Source of the DNA: a virus
Lineage: Duplodnaviria > Caudoviricetes
IMG/VR virus record: IMGVR_UViG_3300031566_000311
Coordinates: 1 to 26,615 of that record
Length of the DNA: 26,615 nucleotides
Direction: 5' to 3' (one strand)
Of this stretch, positions 3,807 to 24,517 are shown in pieces. Numbering within the stretch: position 1 is the first letter of the stretch; each line of letters begins with the position of its first letter. The notes beneath the pieces are model-generated. The model did not search any database. It worked only from the letters and a program-made list of their open reading frames with translations, and was not told the origin of the DNA. The position numbers and the translations under genes are program-made.

Positions 3807-4016
3807 TCAGGAATTAAATACAAATATATAGATAGCAAATACTAAAGTAATTCCGAATGTCATTGCTGATATAACAAATATAGCACCACCTATAAACCAA
3901 ATAAAGGGATGTTTTATTTCTTTTATATATTCACAATTATTGAAATGTTTATCGAGCCAATTAGTTAATAACATTAATATTGTAGTTATCGCAAATGAGA
4001 TTAAACAACGATTCAT
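3807..4016 (-). CDS. Small two-TM membrane protein
   Basis: SD AAAGGAG before ATG 4016 (MNRCLISF...); two hydrophobic segments. Confidence 0.7.
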   Translation of the reverse strand: MNRCLISFAITTILMLLTNWLDKHFNNCEYIKEIKHPFIWFIGGAIFVISAMTFGITLVFAIYIFVFNS

Positions 4017-4514: not shown

Positions 4515-4674
4515 GCCCGGCTTTAGCCAATGCCCTCACCGGGCGGTTGATGGACCTGCCTTTTGTGGTAGCTATGGTGACGTCTGCCATAACCTATTAC
4601 TCCTTTTGTTACAGGCATTACTACCCGTCAGGGTGCGCATTGCTAAGAGGCGTAACGAGTATATACAGGCAGTC
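4515..4674 (-). ncRNA. Candidate structured ncRNA
   Basis: GC-elevated intergenic stretch; closing stem 4667-4674/4553-4561, inner stems 4624-4659 and 4571-4593, 3' hairpin 4515-4544. Confidence 0.45.
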
Positions 4675-11421: not shown

Positions 11422-11450
11422 TTGACATTTTGATTAAAAAGGTGTATATA
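11422..11450 (+). promoter_or_regulatory. Sigma70-type promoter, antisense to the late operon
   Basis: TTGACA-17 nt-TATATA. Confidence 0.65.
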
Positions 11451-11472
11451 TTAGGTATATGATAAGTGAAGT

Positions 11473-11709
11473 TAGGTGAGCCGAGATTTTCACAGGGTCG
11501 TTATAACCTTGTGATCACTTCCTTTTTTCTTGGTTCGCCTATTATAATGTAGGTGAGCCGGACTCCTGTCTTGAAGTAGGTTCGGTTGATGTTCCTACTT
11601 TAATTCACGTCCTTGTCCGGCTTGCCTATAAATGAGGTAGGCGGGTTAGGTTGTATTTTCACAAGGTTGCCATAATCTTGTGACACGTCCTTTGAGCTTA
11701 ACTCGCCTA
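11473..11709 (+). ncRNA. Array of three homologous structured RNA units (11473-11541, 11550-11628, 11638-11709)
   Basis: Each has a 14-15 bp outer stem UAGGYGRG.../...YUYGCCUA, a 9-11 bp inner hairpin and an unpaired CAC(U/G)UCCUU; compensatory changes between copies; G-U pairs indicate plus strand. Confidence 0.85.
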
Positions 11710-11726
11710 TATAAAGGGGGTCTATT

Positions 11727-11966
11727 ATGAAAGCGTATATAAATAAGGTCGGCAAAACCTTGCTGTTGGGGCTTATAATATTGGTAGTTGCAGGGATAAT
11801 ATATTTGGTTGTGCCGAAGTATCAGATACAGTCTGTCAGGGTTGACGATGATACGGTGGTGGTGGTGAGGATTAATACGTTGACCGGTGAGATAGTTATT
11901 ACTTCCCAAACATTAGTTGAAAGTGCTTTTGATAAATATGGTGTGGGGCATAAATATAGATTCTAA
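11727..11966 (+). CDS. 79-aa membrane-anchored protein (moron)
   Basis: SD AAAGGGGG; N-terminal TM then beta-rich VVRINTLTGE; fills the gap on the opposite strand. Confidence 0.75.
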   Translation: MKAYINKVGKTLLLGLIILVVAGIIYLVVPKYQIQSVRVDDDTVVVVRINTLTGEIVITSQTLVESAFDKYGVGHKYRF

Positions 11967-14900
11967 AAACTAAACTTTTTCCCTTCACTTTTTCTCAAAG
12001 AAGTTTCACTAAATGTAAATTTCTTACCACTTTTAGCGAAATCTATTACAAGTGGTGTCTTTTTCTTTTCCGCTTCCCTCTCTTTTATCCCTACATCTAC
12101 TCCTGCACCAGCTAATAAATACTGTAATTTCTGCATAGCATTTCGTTCTATTTCGTAAGCGTCGCCCCTTGTCTTATATTCCTTATCAAAGATTTCCCTA
12201 ATCTTCCTTATCGCCCTTACGTCTACATTCTTTTGATTGGTAGCTGCTTCGTATCCCCTTAAAGTATAATCATAAAAAGGCATCCACATATTAGCAAGAC
12301 GAGGTATGGCAGTGCTTAAAGCCGCTATAGATCTCTCATCACCGCCGACCGCCAATACAGTACTCACATAAACATCAGTTGCTGCCTCTATTGTTCCTAT
12401 GGCTAATCCTCCTGGCTCATAAGCAAGTAACTCTAAAAATCCATAAGGGCTTTGCCTTCTCCCTGTAACCTTCTTATATATAGCGCTCATAATCATACCA
12501 CCGATTATGATACTCATCACTACTTTGGAAGCCCTTACTTTCTGACTTATTGTTCCTTCTTTAAAATGTTTAGCTTGTTTTAATAGCATTTCATTGTAGG
12601 CACGGGGAAACAACATCAGATTAGTTAACCACTTGCCTTTGCCCATTTCAGCAAAGGATCGTTCTGCACGGTTATATTGAAATTGAGTATCAGCCGTAAA
12701 GACCCTTGCCATATATCTTGACATTGCCTCTACGCCGTCTTTGGCTAATATCTCTAATGCCATTATTCTTTCGGTTCGTTCCATATCGTTAAACTTGGCT
12801 TGCCCCATTGCCTTGCTTAACTGTTTTTCGGTTGAGTTTTTATCTATATCGGCAAATGCCCTATGGGTCTGATTAATTCTCGCCCAAAAAGAAGTAATCC
12901 TATTTAACTGGTCGGAGTAAGGATATATACCTACCTTGTTAACTAATTTCATCAGCCCTTTGCCTAATCTGCCAAAATAGGGTTTCTCTCCTACCATAAA
13001 CCAATCTATTTTCATAGACTGTATCTGGCTGACATAAGTATTCATATAATCTGTTTCTTCGGAAGTTAATTTTTTGTTTCTTGGGTCTATTAATATGGAC
13101 TTATCAAAACCGAAAGCATAAGGTTGTAGAACATTCCTGGCAAACATAGCAGGACTTGGCAAGATAATGACTTGCATTGCCTGTGCATATGCCCTATTCA
13201 ATTCCCTTTCAACCAATCCTTCGGGTCTGTTATATCCCTTTAATTCCCTTAAAAATATTTCTACGCCTTCTTTTATTCTTTGGGGGTTTTGAAATTTATC
13301 TATATTCTCATCTATTAAAGTCATAAAAGCCCTTACTTTGGGTCGCATATCTACGAGATTATCCATCTGCTTTTTGTAAGAAAATAATCTTTCAAGTATA
13401 TTCTTGTCCTGCTCGTGATATTCTATATCGGTTCTCACTTTGATATGACTTTTCCCAAAGGTCTGGGGTTTTGGTTTCCACATTCTTAATTCATTCGATA
13501 CAACCTGTAACGGATCATACCCATTTCTAATTATCCCCCATTCTTGGGTTTTCATATATTCAACTAAATCATCATAGCCCTTACCCTCGTAGATATCTTT
13601 AGCCTTATCTATCTCTTTCTTATATTGTTCGTATTGAGGTATCTTCTGGGGAAATTCTATATCTTCTAAAAACTTCTCTGTTCTTGCTTTTGCCTGATAA
13701 TCTTTTAATATCCCTTCAATCTTCTTTGCCATTTTAATTTCCTGCTCGGTAATCTTTTCCGGATATTCAGGCTTATTCTTCAGGTTACTTTTAGATGTTA
13801 TGTAATCTGCTACTCTTTTTATTGCTTTTTCATCTTTAATAATATCTTTATATTCTTCAAATTCATGGAGAAATACTGCTGCTTTTTCTTTATTTTCCAA
13901 TGAGATATCTATTAAACTCTGATACATACGATAGATAGGCGCACCTGTTATCTCTTCCATTTTCTGGAAGATGATACGAGCGCTATTTAATTCTTTGGGG
14001 TCTCTTAATCCCTTATCCCTATATTTACCTATAATCTCTTTTTCTTTATCTATCAGCTTCTTTATTGCAGGTTGTTTTTCTACTGCTTGATTATACGGCA
14101 GGGTTTCTCTTAATATGTCAGACTCGCCAATTAGCCGATAAATAACATCTTTGCCCTGCTTCTCGGTGATAAAATTTGAAGCGTCAGTATATTTCGGCTC
14201 TTTATACACGCCCTCGCTTTTTAGGATAGAGGTATAGGCTTCTTCTGACATCTGAAGTTTATCTATTAGGTTATCTTTAAGGGATTGGATTTTCTTTTCG
14301 GTCTTAGGAGTAACCACATCTTTATAGCCGATACGCTTTGGTCTGGCTCGGTTGACTGCTTGTAGGACTGCTTCTAACTGCGGTATAGTCATACGCTTGG
14401 TAGCAGTGGCTAAATGGGGAGACATACCATGTTGACGTTTTAGGTCGGCAAACTTTACTCCGGTTAACCCTTTTTGATTAACTACCTTGTGAATTTGCCC
14501 CATTAGTTTATTGCCTTCTATCCTTTGTTCAGGGGTTAATTCTTTGTTTAGTGAGTAAGGTTTTTCAGCTTTAACTTCCGCTTTGGTCGGCACAGTCGTT
14601 GCCTTTTCTGCAACAGGTGCAACTGCCGAGGGTTGCTCGGTGGCTTGGGTGTAGATAGAGGAGAGTTGTGCTTTGGTTTTTATTATGTCTTTATTTATTA
14701 CTGCTAATGATACTCCATGCCCTTCTGGTTCTATTGAACGGATAGCATCATAACCCTTATCTTTAATTTTCTGTATAAATAATGGGTCTTCAATGGCATC
14801 ATGTATATCAGCATTACCTTCATCAATATCATCAGCCCATTCAGGGTCAATTTCTCTAATCTTTTCTAAGTTTTTTATTAGAGTGTTTGTATTTTTTAAT

Positions 14901-16453
14901 CCTGTAAAATCAATAATTTTTGCATCTTTAGAGATAAACGCTTTAACGATATTCTGCCCACCCCTTAAATCTGCAAAATATTCAGCATCATTTCTATTTT
15001 CTGCAAAAAATATAACAGGTGATTTTGCATCTGTTTTAAATATCCCTAATCCATAACGATTTTTTATATCAAATTCTTTAATATCAGAAGTTGTCCCATG
15101 ATAAACATTCTTCTGACTACCTACAAATTCATCTACATCTTTCGCCTTCCTCGCTTCCTCTGCCAGCCCTTCAAGCTCGGCGGGGATAGCGGGGGTGGGT
15201 TGTGGCTCTTCCGCTTCTTTCCCCAACGCAACCGCCTCTGGCTGTCTTGGTATAATCCCCTGTGCCTCTGCTATAACTCTTAATGTTTCCCTTATATCAC
15301 CCTTGTTCTGTATAAAGTTATCTATTGCCTGTCCTGTCTTGGTGGCAACTATAGTGCTGCCTGCAACACTACCGCCTAAACCGCCTAACACCAATGCCAT
15401 AGCCATGCCGCCATAAGCATTTACTCCCATCTCTTTGATTAAAGGTTCAATAGACCAATCTTGCGGCAACCCAATAGCCTGTTTTACTCCCTTTTCTATA
15501 GGAACCATTTCAGCTTCTTGCCAGGATTGTAAAGCTACATTTTTAATAAATTCAATACCTAATTTGCCATATTTATCAATTAAGGTTTTAGCCCCTTCAT
15601 TAACAAGAGCTTTACCGCCACCCTTTAATAATCTTGCTACACCCATAAATACAGGTAATTCAGTAGCCATTTCACCAACACCGGATAAAGCCCCGCCAAT
15701 AACCATTGCATAATAAGGTGCTTCTTTGCCTAATGCTTCATATTCTTCTTCAATCTGTCTTGCCTGCCCGCCCATAGCACCTAATCCAAAAGGTATCATT
15801 TGTGTTACACGAGTGACTATTTCGGCAAGTGGTTTCCCTGCTGCAATTCCAGTAGGAACAGGCATACCAGTTCCTAACGCTACCGAACCAAGTATTTGCG
15901 GTGCAGCCTGTAAACCTGTGCCGACTAATTTCTTTAGCCAATTCTTACTTTCTACTTGCTCTTGACTTTCAGAAACTATCTTTTCAGACTCTTCTACTAT
16001 TTTGGTTAACATATCGGTAGTATTTATATTAGGATCTACGCCATATTTTTGCTTAAATGCTTTTGCTTTTTCGGGGTCAATAGATATTATTTTACTAATA
16101 GGGTCAGTTAGTTTTGTTACTCCCATATCAACCAGTCTAAAAAGATTGACCAATGAAGCCTGAAATTGAGCTGTCCCTGCTTTAAGACGGTATTTTACAA
16201 CATCGCCCCATGTGGGGTCAGGTTTATCTTCTGGTTTAGATATAGGTAAGTCTTCGATTAGTGGCTTAAACAAGGTTGCACCACCAGCCACAGAAGCTCC
16301 TGTGCCAAATGGAGTTTGTATGGGTGTAGTAGGAGTAGACATCGGCAATCCTTCTATTAGTGGCTTTGCACCCATACCAATACCAAAATCAAATTTTTTA
16401 TTATTAAGTTTTTCTTCTTCCTCTTCTTCTAAAAGGAAATTAAATTTTTTCAT
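11963..16453 (-). CDS. Large internal virion (ejection) protein with ADP-ribosyltransferase-like insert
   Basis: 1496 aa, mostly helical with Gly/Ala-rich hydrophobic region; position after tail nozzle and pilot genes; VYHGT...FFA...GYDAI insert. Confidence 0.7.
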   Translation of the reverse strand: MKKFNFLLEEEEEEKLNNKKFDFGIGMGAKPLIEGLPMSTPTTPIQTPFGTGASVAGGATLFKPLIEDLPISKPEDKPDPTWGDVVKYRLKAGTAQFQASLVNLFRLVDMGVTKLTDPISKIISIDPEKAKAFKQKYGVDPNINTTDMLTKIVEESEKIVSESQEQVESKNWLKKLVGTGLQAAPQILGSVALGTGMPVPTGIAAGKPLAEIVTRVTQMIPFGLGAMGGQARQIEEEYEALGKEAPYYAMVIGGALSGVGEMATELPVFMGVARLLKGGGKALVNEGAKTLIDKYGKLGIEFIKNVALQSWQEAEMVPIEKGVKQAIGLPQDWSIEPLIKEMGVNAYGGMAMALVLGGLGGSVAGSTIVATKTGQAIDNFIQNKGDIRETLRVIAEAQGIIPRQPEAVALGKEAEEPQPTPAIPAELEGLAEEARKAKDVDEFVGSQKNVYHGTTSDIKEFDIKNRYGLGIFKTDAKSPVIFFAENRNDAEYFADLRGGQNIVKAFISKDAKIIDFTGLKNTNTLIKNLEKIREIDPEWADDIDEGNADIHDAIEDPLFIQKIKDKGYDAIRSIEPEGHGVSLAVINKDIIKTKAQLSSIYTQATEQPSAVAPVAEKATTVPTKAEVKAEKPYSLNKELTPEQRIEGNKLMGQIHKVVNQKGLTGVKFADLKRQHGMSPHLATATKRMTIPQLEAVLQAVNRARPKRIGYKDVVTPKTEKKIQSLKDNLIDKLQMSEEAYTSILKSEGVYKEPKYTDASNFITEKQGKDVIYRLIGESDILRETLPYNQAVEKQPAIKKLIDKEKEIIGKYRDKGLRDPKELNSARIIFQKMEEITGAPIYRMYQSLIDISLENKEKAAVFLHEFEEYKDIIKDEKAIKRVADYITSKSNLKNKPEYPEKITEQEIKMAKKIEGILKDYQAKARTEKFLEDIEFPQKIPQYEQYKKEIDKAKDIYEGKGYDDLVEYMKTQEWGIIRNGYDPLQVVSNELRMWKPKPQTFGKSHIKVRTDIEYHEQDKNILERLFSYKKQMDNLVDMRPKVRAFMTLIDENIDKFQNPQRIKEGVEIFLRELKGYNRPEGLVERELNRAYAQAMQVIILPSPAMFARNVLQPYAFGFDKSILIDPRNKKLTSEETDYMNTYVSQIQSMKIDWFMVGEKPYFGRLGKGLMKLVNKVGIYPYSDQLNRITSFWARINQTHRAFADIDKNSTEKQLSKAMGQAKFNDMERTERIMALEILAKDGVEAMSRYMARVFTADTQFQYNRAERSFAEMGKGKWLTNLMLFPRAYNEMLLKQAKHFKEGTISQKVRASKVVMSIIIGGMIMSAIYKKVTGRRQSPYGFLELLAYEPGGLAIGTIEAATDVYVSTVLAVGGDERSIAALSTAIPRLANMWMPFYDYTLRGYEAATNQKNVDVRAIRKIREIFDKEYKTRGDAYEIERNAMQKLQYLLAGAGVDVGIKEREAEKKKTPLVIDFAKSGKKFTFSETSLRKSEGKKFSF

Positions 16454-16461
16454 TTTTCACC

Positions 16462-17706
16462 TTAATAGTAAATTGATTTATATTGACCTTTACCTACTCC
16501 ACTAAATGTTTTAACACCTTCCCAAAACCCTACTTTTTCTATTTCGCTTAATGGTTTTAATTTTGGGAATTGACTAACATCTACGCCTGCTTTTTCTAAT
16601 AAATCCCTGTATTTCATATATTCTTTTCTAAATTCTTCATATACATCTGGTGCAGGTGCATTTTTATCAATTTGATTACTTACTTCCTGTGGGGTTATTT
16701 CGCCACTTTTTAACCAACCTTTTTCGTTAGCGGTAGCTTTTATTGCTTTTAATAAGTTGCTTAAATATTCTGTCTGGCTATTCGCCCACGCCTCTTTATC
16801 TATCCCTAATTGTGATGGATCATAACCTGCTTCGGTATAGTCATTGATAATCTTTTCGGCATCTTCCCAGCTATCGGCATTTAAGGTATTCTCTCTATAC
16901 TTCTCAAGAGTCGGTAATGAAGTAACCCTATGCTTTTCTGTTGCTACTCCACCTTCGCCAATCGCCCCCGGCTTCTCATACCCCTGCTTATAAGTGTCAA
17001 AGGTCGTAGGTATATTCAAAGATTTTGCCATCTGATTAAAATAATTGGCATTGCCTGTCGCATAAGCGGCATCGAGCTTCTTCTGTGTTTCGCCCATCTT
17101 ATCAAGCTCGGTTGCTGGTGCTTCTGCCGGCTGTGGTATCTCTATCCCTTTTGACCTTAAATATTCGGGTCTAACATCTTGAGGTAACGTTGCCGCCTGC
17201 CCCCATATATCCTCTGGCTGATTTTGTGCTATTGTTGCTCTCTTTTGAATTATATTATTATATGCTTCCAGCGTGTTTTTACCCTTTTCACTGGTAATAT
17301 ATGGCTGAACATACTCATACATTGCTTGAATATCCCCAGGGGGCAATCCTTCAACTCCGCTTGTAAATAAATCCATCCATTCTTTTTCCTGGTCATATTT
17401 TGCCTTATTCATACTTTTTATAGCTTCCATTGCACCTTGATAATGCTCCATAAATTCATAACCGCCGGATAGATATATTGTGCTTATTTGGGCTATTTCT
17501 TCATCTGAATATATATTATCAGTACCGGCTTCTTTTATTTTGGCATTCCAAAGATTGCTTACCTCTAACATCTTGGCTTGCTTTTCCTCTAATTCTTTTC
17601 GCTGCTTCTTCTGCCACCGCATCTCTTGTAATTGCGTTCCCATATTTATACCAGACTGTATTCCGCCCGCTAATCCCTTTAAAAAATGTCCTTCATAGCC
17701 TGTCAT
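16462..17706 (-). CDS. Internal virion protein
   Basis: 414 aa, FLKGLAGGIQSG N-terminus then helical Q/E/K-rich body; synteny. Confidence 0.6.
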   Translation of the reverse strand: MTGYEGHFLKGLAGGIQSGINMGTQLQEMRWQKKQRKELEEKQAKMLEVSNLWNAKIKEAGTDNIYSDEEIAQISTIYLSGGYEFMEHYQGAMEAIKSMNKAKYDQEKEWMDLFTSGVEGLPPGDIQAMYEYVQPYITSEKGKNTLEAYNNIIQKRATIAQNQPEDIWGQAATLPQDVRPEYLRSKGIEIPQPAEAPATELDKMGETQKKLDAAYATGNANYFNQMAKSLNIPTTFDTYKQGYEKPGAIGEGGVATEKHRVTSLPTLEKYRENTLNADSWEDAEKIINDYTEAGYDPSQLGIDKEAWANSQTEYLSNLLKAIKATANEKGWLKSGEITPQEVSNQIDKNAPAPDVYEEFRKEYMKYRDLLEKAGVDVSQFPKLKPLSEIEKVGFWEGVKTFSGVGKGQYKSIYY

Positions 17707-17707
17707 A

Positions 17708-18145
17708 TTAAATCACTTCCTTTATCATTATCTTTTCAATAACTGAACATCTATGTTTATATCCGAATTTACCATATTTCCTTTCAACCGCCTTGGGGTT
17801 TCTATGGGTGGTAAAACTTATCTTTTCGGCTTTAAGCTCTTTTGCCTTTTGCTCTATAAAATTTACATACTCTACACTTAATTTCGGACAGTGCTTATCT
17901 ATAAACATATAAATCACAAATAAGGTTAAGTCGCCGATTATATCCCTTTGTATAGTTAATATCACGCACCCGTTCATCTTATCCCCGTCATAACTGACAT
18001 GGGTAGATATCCTATCATTAAATTGACCGGCAACCATATAACTATATAATTTATCTTCTTTTAACTTACAATCTTTGGTTTCCTTTAATTTGTCACATAC
18101 CTTAAAGAAATCATCGGTATCTAAAGTAAGATTTATTTTATCCAT
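17708..18145 (-). CDS. GNAT-like acetyltransferase-fold protein
   Basis: LFVIYMFID...KAKELKAEKISF...KFGYK pattern; such genes commonly sit among podovirus internal virion genes. Confidence 0.6.
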   Translation of the reverse strand: MDKINLTLDTDDFFKVCDKLKETKDCKLKEDKLYSYMVAGQFNDRISTHVSYDGDKMNGCVILTIQRDIIGDLTLFVIYMFIDKHCPKLSVEYVNFIEQKAKELKAEKISFTTHRNPKAVERKYGKFGYKHRCSVIEKIMIKEVI

Positions 18146-18147
18146 TA

Positions 18148-19206
18148 TTAACTCCCCGGTAAGAGGCTGAATATCCCGCCTAAAATTATACCAAATATAT
18201 TGCCTGCCCCTTCTGCTTTCGCTGCCTTTCTATTTGCTTCTAATTCCATTTGTGCTAATTCCAAATCATAACCGTGTTGCTTTTCGGCAAGTTGGCTCTG
18301 TAATTGTGCGGTTAATTTAATATTACTCTGTTGATATGCCTGATTAATAGCTAATTTCTGGAAGTCTATATCTGCCTGCCAAGCCTGCATTTTAGCCAAC
18401 TGCTCTGCCGACCAGGTAGCAAATTCAGGTGCATACTTTAATTGACTTTGCTCTGATAAATAACCCAGGAATTGACCTGCCTGTCCCATTGCAGTTTCAA
18501 AACTGGCCATCTTCATAAGTGCCGATTTAATCTGAATATCGGCAATTCCCGAAGCTATTGCTTTAGAAGTGTTAGACCTGATTGCCTGCTCGTTAGCAAA
18601 GACAAAACCGCTGTTGGTGATCCCCCGCCGTTCCATGTTATTCCGCATGACCCGCAAATTCTCTGCCTCACTTGCCTTCAATGAATCGGTCTGTTGCTGT
18701 ATCATCTGTGCCTGTGTTTCTTCGGGGATACCGTAACCACCTGCTTCTGCCCAGTCGGTTATCTTACCGCCGAACATATCTTCAAAGGCCTGCTGTGCGG
18801 GTGATATCTCATAAGGTGGTGCTGGGGTGACTGCGGCTGGTGTAATTCCCCCGCCTGCTCCACAGGGTGGTTTACCACTCTGACTACAAAGGTTGCCGTC
18901 TTCGTCAATAGGAGGACCCGTTGGAACATGCGGTTCTTTCCCTGGAGTAGGAATAGTTGTAAATTCCACTGATGGCATTACCGAACCTTCTGGAGGTGTT
19001 TCTGCTGTTGGTATATTTGTTGCCGTAGTTGGTGTAGTAGTTGGTGTTACAGCCGTTCCTCCCCACGGCAATACTCCTGTATTCTGATAGGATGTCCATG
19101 CAGAAGCAGCAGCGTCATTATATCCTTCACGTTTTGCCGGCCCTTCCGAATAATACCAATGGAAATGTTGTTTTATAAAATCACTTTTACCCAATAAATC
19201 TGCCAT
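18148..19206 (-). CDS. Internal virion / pilot-like protein
   Basis: Pro/Thr-rich N-terminus, RRGITNSG motif, Q/A-rich coiled coil, Gly-rich hydrophobic C-terminus. Confidence 0.6.
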   Translation of the reverse strand: MADLLGKSDFIKQHFHWYYSEGPAKREGYNDAAASAWTSYQNTGVLPWGGTAVTPTTTPTTATNIPTAETPPEGSVMPSVEFTTIPTPGKEPHVPTGPPIDEDGNLCSQSGKPPCGAGGGITPAAVTPAPPYEISPAQQAFEDMFGGKITDWAEAGGYGIPEETQAQMIQQQTDSLKASEAENLRVMRNNMERRGITNSGFVFANEQAIRSNTSKAIASGIADIQIKSALMKMASFETAMGQAGQFLGYLSEQSQLKYAPEFATWSAEQLAKMQAWQADIDFQKLAINQAYQQSNIKLTAQLQSQLAEKQHGYDLELAQMELEANRKAAKAEGAGNIFGIILGGIFSLLPGS

Positions 19207-19260
19207 AATAAAATCACGCTCCTTAAATTAATCCATAAGAAATCCCCCCTGTTTATATTT

Positions 19261-23823: not shown

Positions 23824-24108
23824 TTAATCTACGGTCAAAAACACTTCTCCTGCAGTAAATTCTACATAGCAGCCAGCAGCAAACTTAACTCCTCCTGCCG
23901 GAATATATGCTTCATCGGTTGATTTATAAGTAGCTAATGTTTCTAATCCAATTCTCTTTAATTCAGCAGTAGGACTGTCTGGTGTTGCCCCTGCTTCGTC
24001 ATAGATAGCAGCAGTAGTAGCACCTTGATATTGTAACCTTGCCGCATATATTGTAATCGGCACATCATAAACTAACTGTGTATCAGCTACAATTCTTATA
24101 ATTTGCAT
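23824..24108 (-). CDS. Small beta-rich structural-region protein
   Basis: 94 aa, SD AAAGGAAGTGAT. Confidence 0.7.
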   Translation of the reverse strand: MQIIRIVADTQLVYDVPITIYAARLQYQGATTAAIYDEAGATPDSPTAELKRIGLETLATYKSTDEAYIPAGGVKFAAGCYVEFTAGEVFLTVD

Positions 24109-24121
24109 AAAATCACTTCCT

Positions 24122-24517
24122 TTATTCTTCTATTAATTTTCCTAATTGATATAAAATATTGGGGGTAATGGTTTCGCCGAATACTTCCTTTGTTGCTTTA
24201 AGTGGCTCGAAGGGTATTTCAATTTCCTTTTGATTAATCTTGTCCCATTCCACACCCATACTAATACGGTTATCTTTGGCCAGGTCATGCTCATATTTGC
24301 CCTTCTTATTCTTTTTAAACAAAGGTTTGCCGTCTTTGTCTTTTTTAGCATATTTCACGGCTAATCTATTTATCTCTTTGTCAATGTCTTGCAGTTCTTT
24401 TATAAAACTGAAAATTAATCGGTTAAACAGGTTTGCAGTGGGAGGGGGTAATTCTCTCATCATAATAGAGTTAATGCCTGTATTTAGACCCCTCACTTCA
24501 TTTAAAGTAACTTTCAT
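24122..24517 (-). CDS. Hypothetical helical protein (possible fibre chaperone)
   Basis: 131 aa, KYAKKDKDGKP motif; SD AAAGGAGG; follows a beta-helix gene. Confidence 0.6.
   Translation of the reverse strand: MKVTLNEVRGLNTGINSIMMRELPPPTANLFNRLIFSFIKELQDIDKEINRLAVKYAKKDKDGKPLFKKNKKGKYEHDLAKDNRISMGVEWDKINQKEIEIPFEPLKATKEVFGETITPNILYQLGKLIEE

Follow-up and report, generated by a model that had tools for sequence, protein, structure and literature searches.

The window analysed here, 26,615 nt in length, is an entire 26.6-kb virus record (labelled G000) with a completeness estimate of 60%. Nearly all of its genes lie on the minus strand. Profile searches identified an SU10 adaptor and an internal virion protein in the window, and portal, major head and terminase families in its relatives; on the basis of these matches and of the absence of a tape measure, the phage is predicted to be podovirus-like. 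The products of 352, 414 and 1496 aa are called putative ejection proteins from their position and size, and no profile names them. In the largest of the three (11963-16453, minus strand), a profile match placed an ART-PolyVal ADP-ribosyltransferase domain at residues 445-579. A search for tRNAs and tmRNA returned none, and the Rfam family abiF gave a weak match at 4623-4659 on the minus strand (31.6 bits, gathering score 37).

Between the 1496-aa gene, which flanks it, and a 159-aa gene, the plus strand carries a cassette that is antisense to the late operon and comprises a promoter, three RNA units and the gene of a 79-aa membrane protein. As the initial annotation had claimed, TTGACA (11422-11427) and TATATA (11445-11450) are present at a distance of 17 nt. 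Sequence and conservation suggest a sigma-70-type promoter (11422-11450, plus strand), with TG ahead of the -10 element. It was missed by a simple consensus promoter scan, the rule of which demands a T at position 6. A TTGACA was found 41-51 nt ahead of the first unit in 10 of the 12 arrays examined. The units themselves also proved to be as described: they are 69-79 nt long, are separated by spacers of 8 and 9 nt, and have outer stems of 14, 14 and 15 bp that enclose inner hairpins. Unit 1 (69 nt, 11473-11541) combines a 14-bp outer stem with a 9-bp inner hairpin, and folding placed its loop at 11499-11505 and its open 3' guide strand at 11515-11527. Loop guide and strand guide are located at 11585-11592 and 11602-11614 in unit 2 (79 nt, 11550-11628), and at 11668-11674 and 11684-11693 in unit 3 (72 nt, 11638-11709), all on the plus strand. 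The 3' strand CAC(U/G)UCCUU, previously noted as unpaired, is present in all three units, but in unit 2 it is only partly open (mean probability of being unpaired 0.65, compared with 0.99 in unit 1 and 0.88 in unit 3).

The array folds far better than expected by chance. For the plus strand (11455-11735), we obtained a folding energy of -107.1 kcal/mol (z -6.66), and none of 200 shuffled sequences was as good; the minus strand of the same segment reached -68.9 kcal/mol (z -3.24). All 24 units were more stable on the plus than on the minus strand, with z-scores from -5.0 to -10.9. The covariation of the stems, claimed on the basis of three units, holds across 20 aligned units: 95% of the outer-stem cells are paired, compared with 29-48% in slid controls, and two-sided changes occur in 12 of the 16 pairs; none of 500 shuffles scored as high. 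G-U pairs account for 65 of the 320 outer-stem cells, and the stem base consists of invariant AGG/CCU pairs. The inner hairpins, as seen by folding and without a count of covariation, vary freely in sequence and keep 7-11 bp, their arms being mutually complementary. Two segments of each unit are largely open, namely the apical loop and the 3' side of the internal loop; the latter is semi-conserved, and the 5' strand measures only 3-9 nt. A minus-strand reading of the array, with SD-like or CsrA-like sites or tiny ORFs, was rejected in view of the better plus-strand fold of all 24 units and of the many G-U pairs.

In line with the earlier remark that the array could not be assigned to a known RNA family, the covariance models of Rfam 15 matched nothing in the cassette of the window at E <= 10, and on five unit-bearing loci they returned a single weak and unrelated match. 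A literature search, which covered mostly open-access main texts, found no prior description of this RNA. The folded RNA family is real, previously uncatalogued and phage-borne. The suggestion that RNase III releases the units by cutting at the stems is unsupported; a cut in the closing stem would open the unit.

We analyzed the distribution of the units with the help of the 79-aa gene, relatives of which were found at 60 metagenome loci, including the window. One to three units were present at 14 of these loci, whereas at 11 the promoter directly precedes the gene without any unit; a different hairpin leader was found at 19 loci, another arrangement at 14, and two loci were too short. G007 and G008 contributed further units. 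A DNA pattern search additionally uncovered one unit in a contig with a tape-measure gene (L131), with a near-identical promoter upstream and a lipoprotein-like gene downstream. An obligate linkage of the units to the 79-aa gene is therefore not supported, because other genes follow the units in G008 and L131 and 11 of the 60 gene loci are unit-free. Two relatives with direct terminal repeats (G012, G013) and a 42-kb contig (G009:C2) also contain no unit. Given these unit-free gene loci, the units before other genes and the unit-free relatives, the RNA is an accessory module that occupies an antisense moron slot in zero to three copies, without being tied to the 79-aa gene.

Outside the slot, searches of 74 and 35 sources with a covariance model of the outer stem only (R1) yielded no match in plus orientation at E <= 0.01. 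In 52 JS1-class genomes there was no match among the 93 candidates scored per genome, out of 275-1369. A strict DNA pattern yielded no match in viral contigs and four single chance-like matches in genomes, of which only that in L002 was scored (E 0.094); with a looser pattern, one of 11 matches was a real unit. Between two intact units of L009, positions 3854-3904 hold a degenerate remnant with the loop motif and the strand but without the stems, which suggests a turnover of units within arrays.

The predicted membrane-protein ORF behind the array (11727-11966, plus strand) is indeed present and has 57 homologues. It is preceded by a GGGGG-type SD, and its product consists of a single N-terminal hydrophobic segment (residues 12-29, approximately) and a small conserved domain. 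The protein had no Pfam match (E <= 0.05), no PHROG and no NCBIfam near the cut-off; all matches in the ESM Atlas were below 0.9 and without names. The family was not found in the genome contig collection, and a fragment of it occurs in a JS1-class genome (G018) with no unit upstream. Its position and context allow the guess that it may act in superinfection exclusion at entry. P22 sieA sits in an equivalent place, after the ejection genes.

The slot otherwise houses pilin and lipoprotein morons. Lipoprotein-like genes were observed within the cassette, between or after units (L036:396-827, L067:2086-2508, L131:6111-6500), and the protein of L036 weakly matches the Cor exclusion protein (E 0.0023). 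At three loci, the membrane-protein gene is truncated or replaced past its first codons (G007:C1:12873-12956, L142:14049-14219, L129:2514-2819), with promoter and start region retained, pointing to cassette swapping. A second conserved element of the slot was seen at L012:3890-4000 and at 18 other loci, and also in G012 and G013. It has its own promoter, a GC-rich hairpin of 8-9 bp and a CCUCCU-like strand able to pair with the downstream SD, and it could be either a cis leader or a second sRNA. Of the 18 loci checked, 14 have a pilin gene upstream of this element.

Type IV pilin morons were found in several of the phages (L012:3442-3867, L014, L015, L038, L053, L073, L145 and L146). Their closest genome match is a pilin of Candidatus Phoenicimicrobium oleiphilum (Atribacterota), with 57% over the length, the first 58 aligned residues identical and an O-antigen-ligase-like gene adjoining. 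The agreement with the JS1 chromosomal pilin lies in these N-terminal 58 residues, the remainder being variable; a role in receptor masking is possible. On sequence grounds, the host is probably a member of Atribacterota JS1. Against this assignment, two contigs with capsid genes belong to assemblies that carry the labels Bathyarchaeia and Bacillota, which are taken to be due to mis-binning.

As for the lifestyle of these phages, the near-complete genomes G001, G012 and G013 carry almost every gene on a single strand, and searches for an integrase, a resolvase or a clear repressor found none in them. Profile searches returned a tyrosine integrase (PF00589) in none of seven records, two of which have direct terminal repeats, a resolvase (PF00239) in none of five, and HTH_3 above the cut-off in none of seven, with no clear repressor among them. 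In the window, no minus-strand terminator-like site was detected between 9500 and 14000.

The variable segments of the units point to start sites of genes as their likely targets. Across 21 guide strands, the C and A columns vary almost only to U and G, respectively, one U is constant throughout, and one position varies freely; this is the pattern expected of pairing that tolerates G-U. Such G-U-containing pairing argues for mRNA rather than DNA as the target. All 20 distinct apical loops contain a triplet that could pair with AUG or UUG, a feature that is absent from the initial annotation. When the loops were paired over the start codons of core genes, the mean energy was -2.69 kcal/mol, compared with -0.89 +/- 0.17 kcal/mol for shuffled loops.

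Virion genes throughout the group use mismatched SD variants (for example at window positions 17712-17723 and 24112-24123), also in phages that lack the RNA; early genes and the genes of the putative host seldom have these variants. The variant SD was found at 28 of 36 core virion start sites and at 19 of 364 other phage sites, although both the core class and the variant pattern were fixed after matches had been seen. A position-based test, in which the class is fixed as the block from the portal to the 400-aa ejection gene, answers this concern: the variant occurs at 27 of 102 sites within the block and at 11 of 227 outside it. In five near-complete genomes, 70 of 100 unit-by-genome tests placed the best site of the unit inside the block, with 32.0 expected and 35.8 obtained for shuffled guides, and the observed value exceeded the highest of 10 shuffles in every genome. 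Neither homologous start sites nor related units are independent of one another, so that nominal p-values from these comparisons are too small.

When the three units of the window were compared with 582 start regions of related contigs, the ten best sites included 6, 6 and 8 core virion genes, respectively. Each unit finds its best capsid match in a different allele of relatives. The best capsid allele for unit 1 (L086) would form a 12-bp strand helix with no G-U pair and an 11-bp loop helix with three. Among 465 sites, unit 2 ranks the capsid gene of L080/L121 first (strand 13 bp without G-U, loop 10 bp with three), and unit 3 that of L122 (strand 10 bp, loop 7 bp, both without G-U). Over 14 capsid alleles, the best matches fall near the diagonal, with L026 paired with L094 and L007 with L090. 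Unit 1 of the window and L026 are one strand base apart, and the capsid alleles that they match differ at that very base. Unit 3 of L036 matches portal genes, including their UUG start. No virion enrichment was seen for L028 and for unit 1 of L043 (one and none in the top 10), and in the held-out genome G012 the core class accounted for 3 of 20 top matches, with 8 more on the adaptor gene. Strand and loop of a unit agreed in their targets, relative to permuted pairs, with p 0.083 in a first statistic (19 units) and with p 0.011 and 0.007 in a second, which was chosen after the first (20 units). Taken together, fold, covariation and complementarity to start sites support the initial proposal of a plus-strand RNA array that most likely occludes ribosome-binding sites.

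The units are likely to be trans-acting antisense RNAs that block the translation of virion genes in kin and self. Each would consist of a conserved two-stem scaffold that presents two variable open strands, the 3' strand to the SD and the apical loop to the start codon. Transcription would start from the host-type promoter; since no integrase, resolvase or HTH_3 protein above the cut-off was found, the RNAs may act at an early stage of infection or in a carrier state without integration. The transcript would be processed to single units, probably in the AU-rich spacers, and these would keep ribosomes off the capsid, portal and ejection-protein mRNAs of the own phage and of related ones, thereby excluding kin phages and braking the own late genes. 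Because no terminator-like site interrupts the minus strand across the cassette, late transcription would yield a full antisense copy of the array, which could neutralise the RNAs and so provide late relief. The resident state that would let an exclusion RNA accumulate is the weakest link of this proposal.

The same pairing could serve self-regulation alone, so that the array would only tune or delay the late genes of its own phage, in a genome with its genes all in one direction. We regard this purely self-regulatory brake, a sub-case that overlaps with the mechanism just described, as possible though rather unlikely. In the window, the start of the 414-aa putative ejection gene (17704-17723, minus strand) is a candidate self target with a perfect 12-nt match to the unit-1 strand (rank 15 of 465), as is that of the 352-aa putative ejection gene (19200-19224, minus strand), which has a 10-bp match to the unit-3 loop, a bulged match to its strand and rank 5 of 465. 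The start of a 94-aa late gene (24106-24123, minus strand) also shows a 12-nt match to the unit-1 strand. The best own sites rank 15, 18 and 5 of 465 for units 1, 2 and 3, with the own capsid start lying off the contig. In L067, the divergent capsid SD and the ejection gene of the same phage come first and second of 465 for unit 2, and unit 1 shows a 12-bp loop match to an own tail-region gene. The unit of L051 fits the SD of the capsid gene and that of the post-capsid gene in each of the two genomes that carry it. A brake would also be in keeping with the finding of no repressor or integrase.

Other observations speak against a function confined to the own genes. The complete relatives G012 and G013 and the contig G009:C2 keep start sites of the target type although they have no unit, and the slot otherwise holds pilin and lipoprotein morons. 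Moreover, the single array of the window best matches three different capsid alleles of relatives, and unit 1 of G007 mismatches its own capsid gene (8+5 bp, compared with 14+9 bp for others). The unit of L131, which stems from a long-tailed phage with a tape measure, found its best of 400 sites in a podovirus ejection gene, its own capsid gene being unseen. Self and kin would thus both be covered, as expected of an immunity-like system.

The units might instead mimic the 3' end of 16S rRNA and soak up a host nuclease or RNA-binding protein. With its hairpin and the CAC-N-UCCUU strand behind it, a unit looks like the 16S 3' end of a JS1-class genome (L181), which has the canonical tail, and binding of a protein to the scaffold is suggested by the invariant AGG/CCU pairs at the base of the stem. 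We nevertheless consider a decoy improbable. The strand, called anti-SD-like in the initial annotation, is no generic copy of the 16S tail: position 7 is a C, as in that tail, in only five of 21 units, and the strand and loop variants track virion alleles, including the portal gene with a UUG start and the divergent capsid SD. Neither the canonical anti-SD nor the true 16S tail had a core gene in its top 10 (59 core sites), and the true tail placed 14 of 50 best sites within the block. Plain mimicry of the 16S tail was rejected on these grounds.

A general or host-directed inhibitor of translation acting through the host SD has in its favour that every strand contains a UCCU-like core, which pairs with any AGGA, and that host sites reach -15 to -24 kcal/mol. 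In the putative host, which is assigned indirectly (G053, 620 kb of one genome), however, the variant SD occurs at only 6 of 425 start sites, and within this part of one genome the best phage virion site surpassed every host site for 17 of 20 units, three units being matched or beaten by a host site. From these two counts, the guides are predicted to avoid most putative-host messages, and an action on the host seems even less probable than a decoy.

It is very unlikely that the units are cis-acting leaders or processing signals for the downstream membrane-protein gene or for the crossing late transcript. They always lie between promoter and gene, and a double-strand RNase could cleave their long stems, but the gene lacks units at no fewer than (at least) 11 of 60 loci and unrelated genes stand behind some units. 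The RBS of the 79-aa gene stays open (probability of being unpaired 0.83), the unit strands pair weakly with its start site (-8.0 to -9.5 kcal/mol), and the G-U content favours the plus strand. Least probable of all are guide RNAs for a protein effector encoded elsewhere, with DNA or RNA as target. The tandem stem-closed units, each with two variable segments, and the UGCCA motif in the loop do recall the TIGR units described in PMC12045711. Symmetric box C-spacer-box D strands are absent, however: the 5' strand has 3-9 nt, and each inner arm is the reverse complement of the other. The Nop profile PF01798, which may miss Tas, matched none of five records, one of them 92% complete.

If virion-gene antisense is correct, these RNAs would constitute an RNA-only, repertoire-style system of exclusion or dormancy, the guides of which are re-pointed at different virion genes and alleles. 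More tentatively, and as a conjecture that is somewhat less likely than not, we picture a protein-free, retargetable repertoire of RNA guides for rivalry between phages. Phages of a subsurface bacterium would swap scaffolds tuned to the capsid, portal and ejection start-site alleles of their competitors, with guides that exploit an SD variant barely used by the host and with the own antisense late transcript as off switch. To our knowledge, proteins make up the defences that block virion formation by kin phages, and known phage antisense RNAs have one fixed target. The scaffold would represent a natural programmable translation silencer, and it makes sharp predictions in the form of unit-target pairs and rescuing base swaps.

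Phage RNAs of similar size are known. CI of P4, C4 of P1 and P7 and sar of P22 are structured RNAs of approximately 70-80 nt that confer immunity through pairing-based repression. CI and C4 pair in two segments, and P4 CI and P1 C4 are processed by RNase P. All of them act on their own antirepressor or leader transcript and have one fixed target, whereas the predicted targets of the units described here are start sites of structural genes in several alleles and phages, far from the cassette. The C4-type families of Rfam gave no match to the units, either in the window or at five unit-bearing loci.

In place and predicted purpose, the cassette recalls Tab and SieA. The gene of Tab in phage JBD26 lies on the minus strand within the late operon and has a promoter of its own; Tab stops virion formation by near-identical phages, self-protection being provided by an anti-Tab protein (PMC10884400). 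SieA of P22 has 162-164 aa and three predicted membrane spans (PMC10883804). Both are described as proteins of integrated prophages (PMC10884400, PMC10883804); in the present case an integrase was not found (PF00589 in none of seven records, PF00239 in none of five), and the predicted effector is an RNA.

Stem-loop TIGR arrays share with the units a tandem, stem-closed layout, two variable guide segments and a phage-borne location (PMC12045711; bioRxiv 10.64898/2026.09.09.750476). An identity with them was rejected by the published definition in PMC12045711, since the units have no box C/D-flanked symmetric spacers; they also differ in that no Nop-domain partner was found in five records (PF01798, a profile that may miss Tas).

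The layout of the array is closer to that of the Cuckoo RNAs CcsR1-4 of Alphaproteobacteria. According to PMC8034643, these are tandem sibling RNAs with an exposed anti-SD, derived from one precursor and co-transcribed with a small-protein gene, with an invariant CCUCCUCCC in their hairpin loops and an adjoining DUF1127 gene. An identity was rejected because CCUCCUCCC is absent from the loops and strands of the phage units and no DUF1127 gene adjoins them, the 79-aa protein having no Pfam match. The anti-SD of the phage units, in contrast, lies in an internal loop, is non-canonical and varies from unit to unit, and the accompanying gene encodes a membrane protein or a lipoprotein.

Finally, the streptococcal csRNAs, CiaR-dependent sibling sRNAs, are chromosomal, 87-151 nt in length and directed against host genes, as stated in PMC4507080. 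The phage units likewise expose segments that are predicted to be complementary to the SD and start codon of their targets. Unlike the csRNAs, they have no Rfam match, are stem-closed, tandem and phage-borne, and carry guides that vary with the alleles of virion genes.
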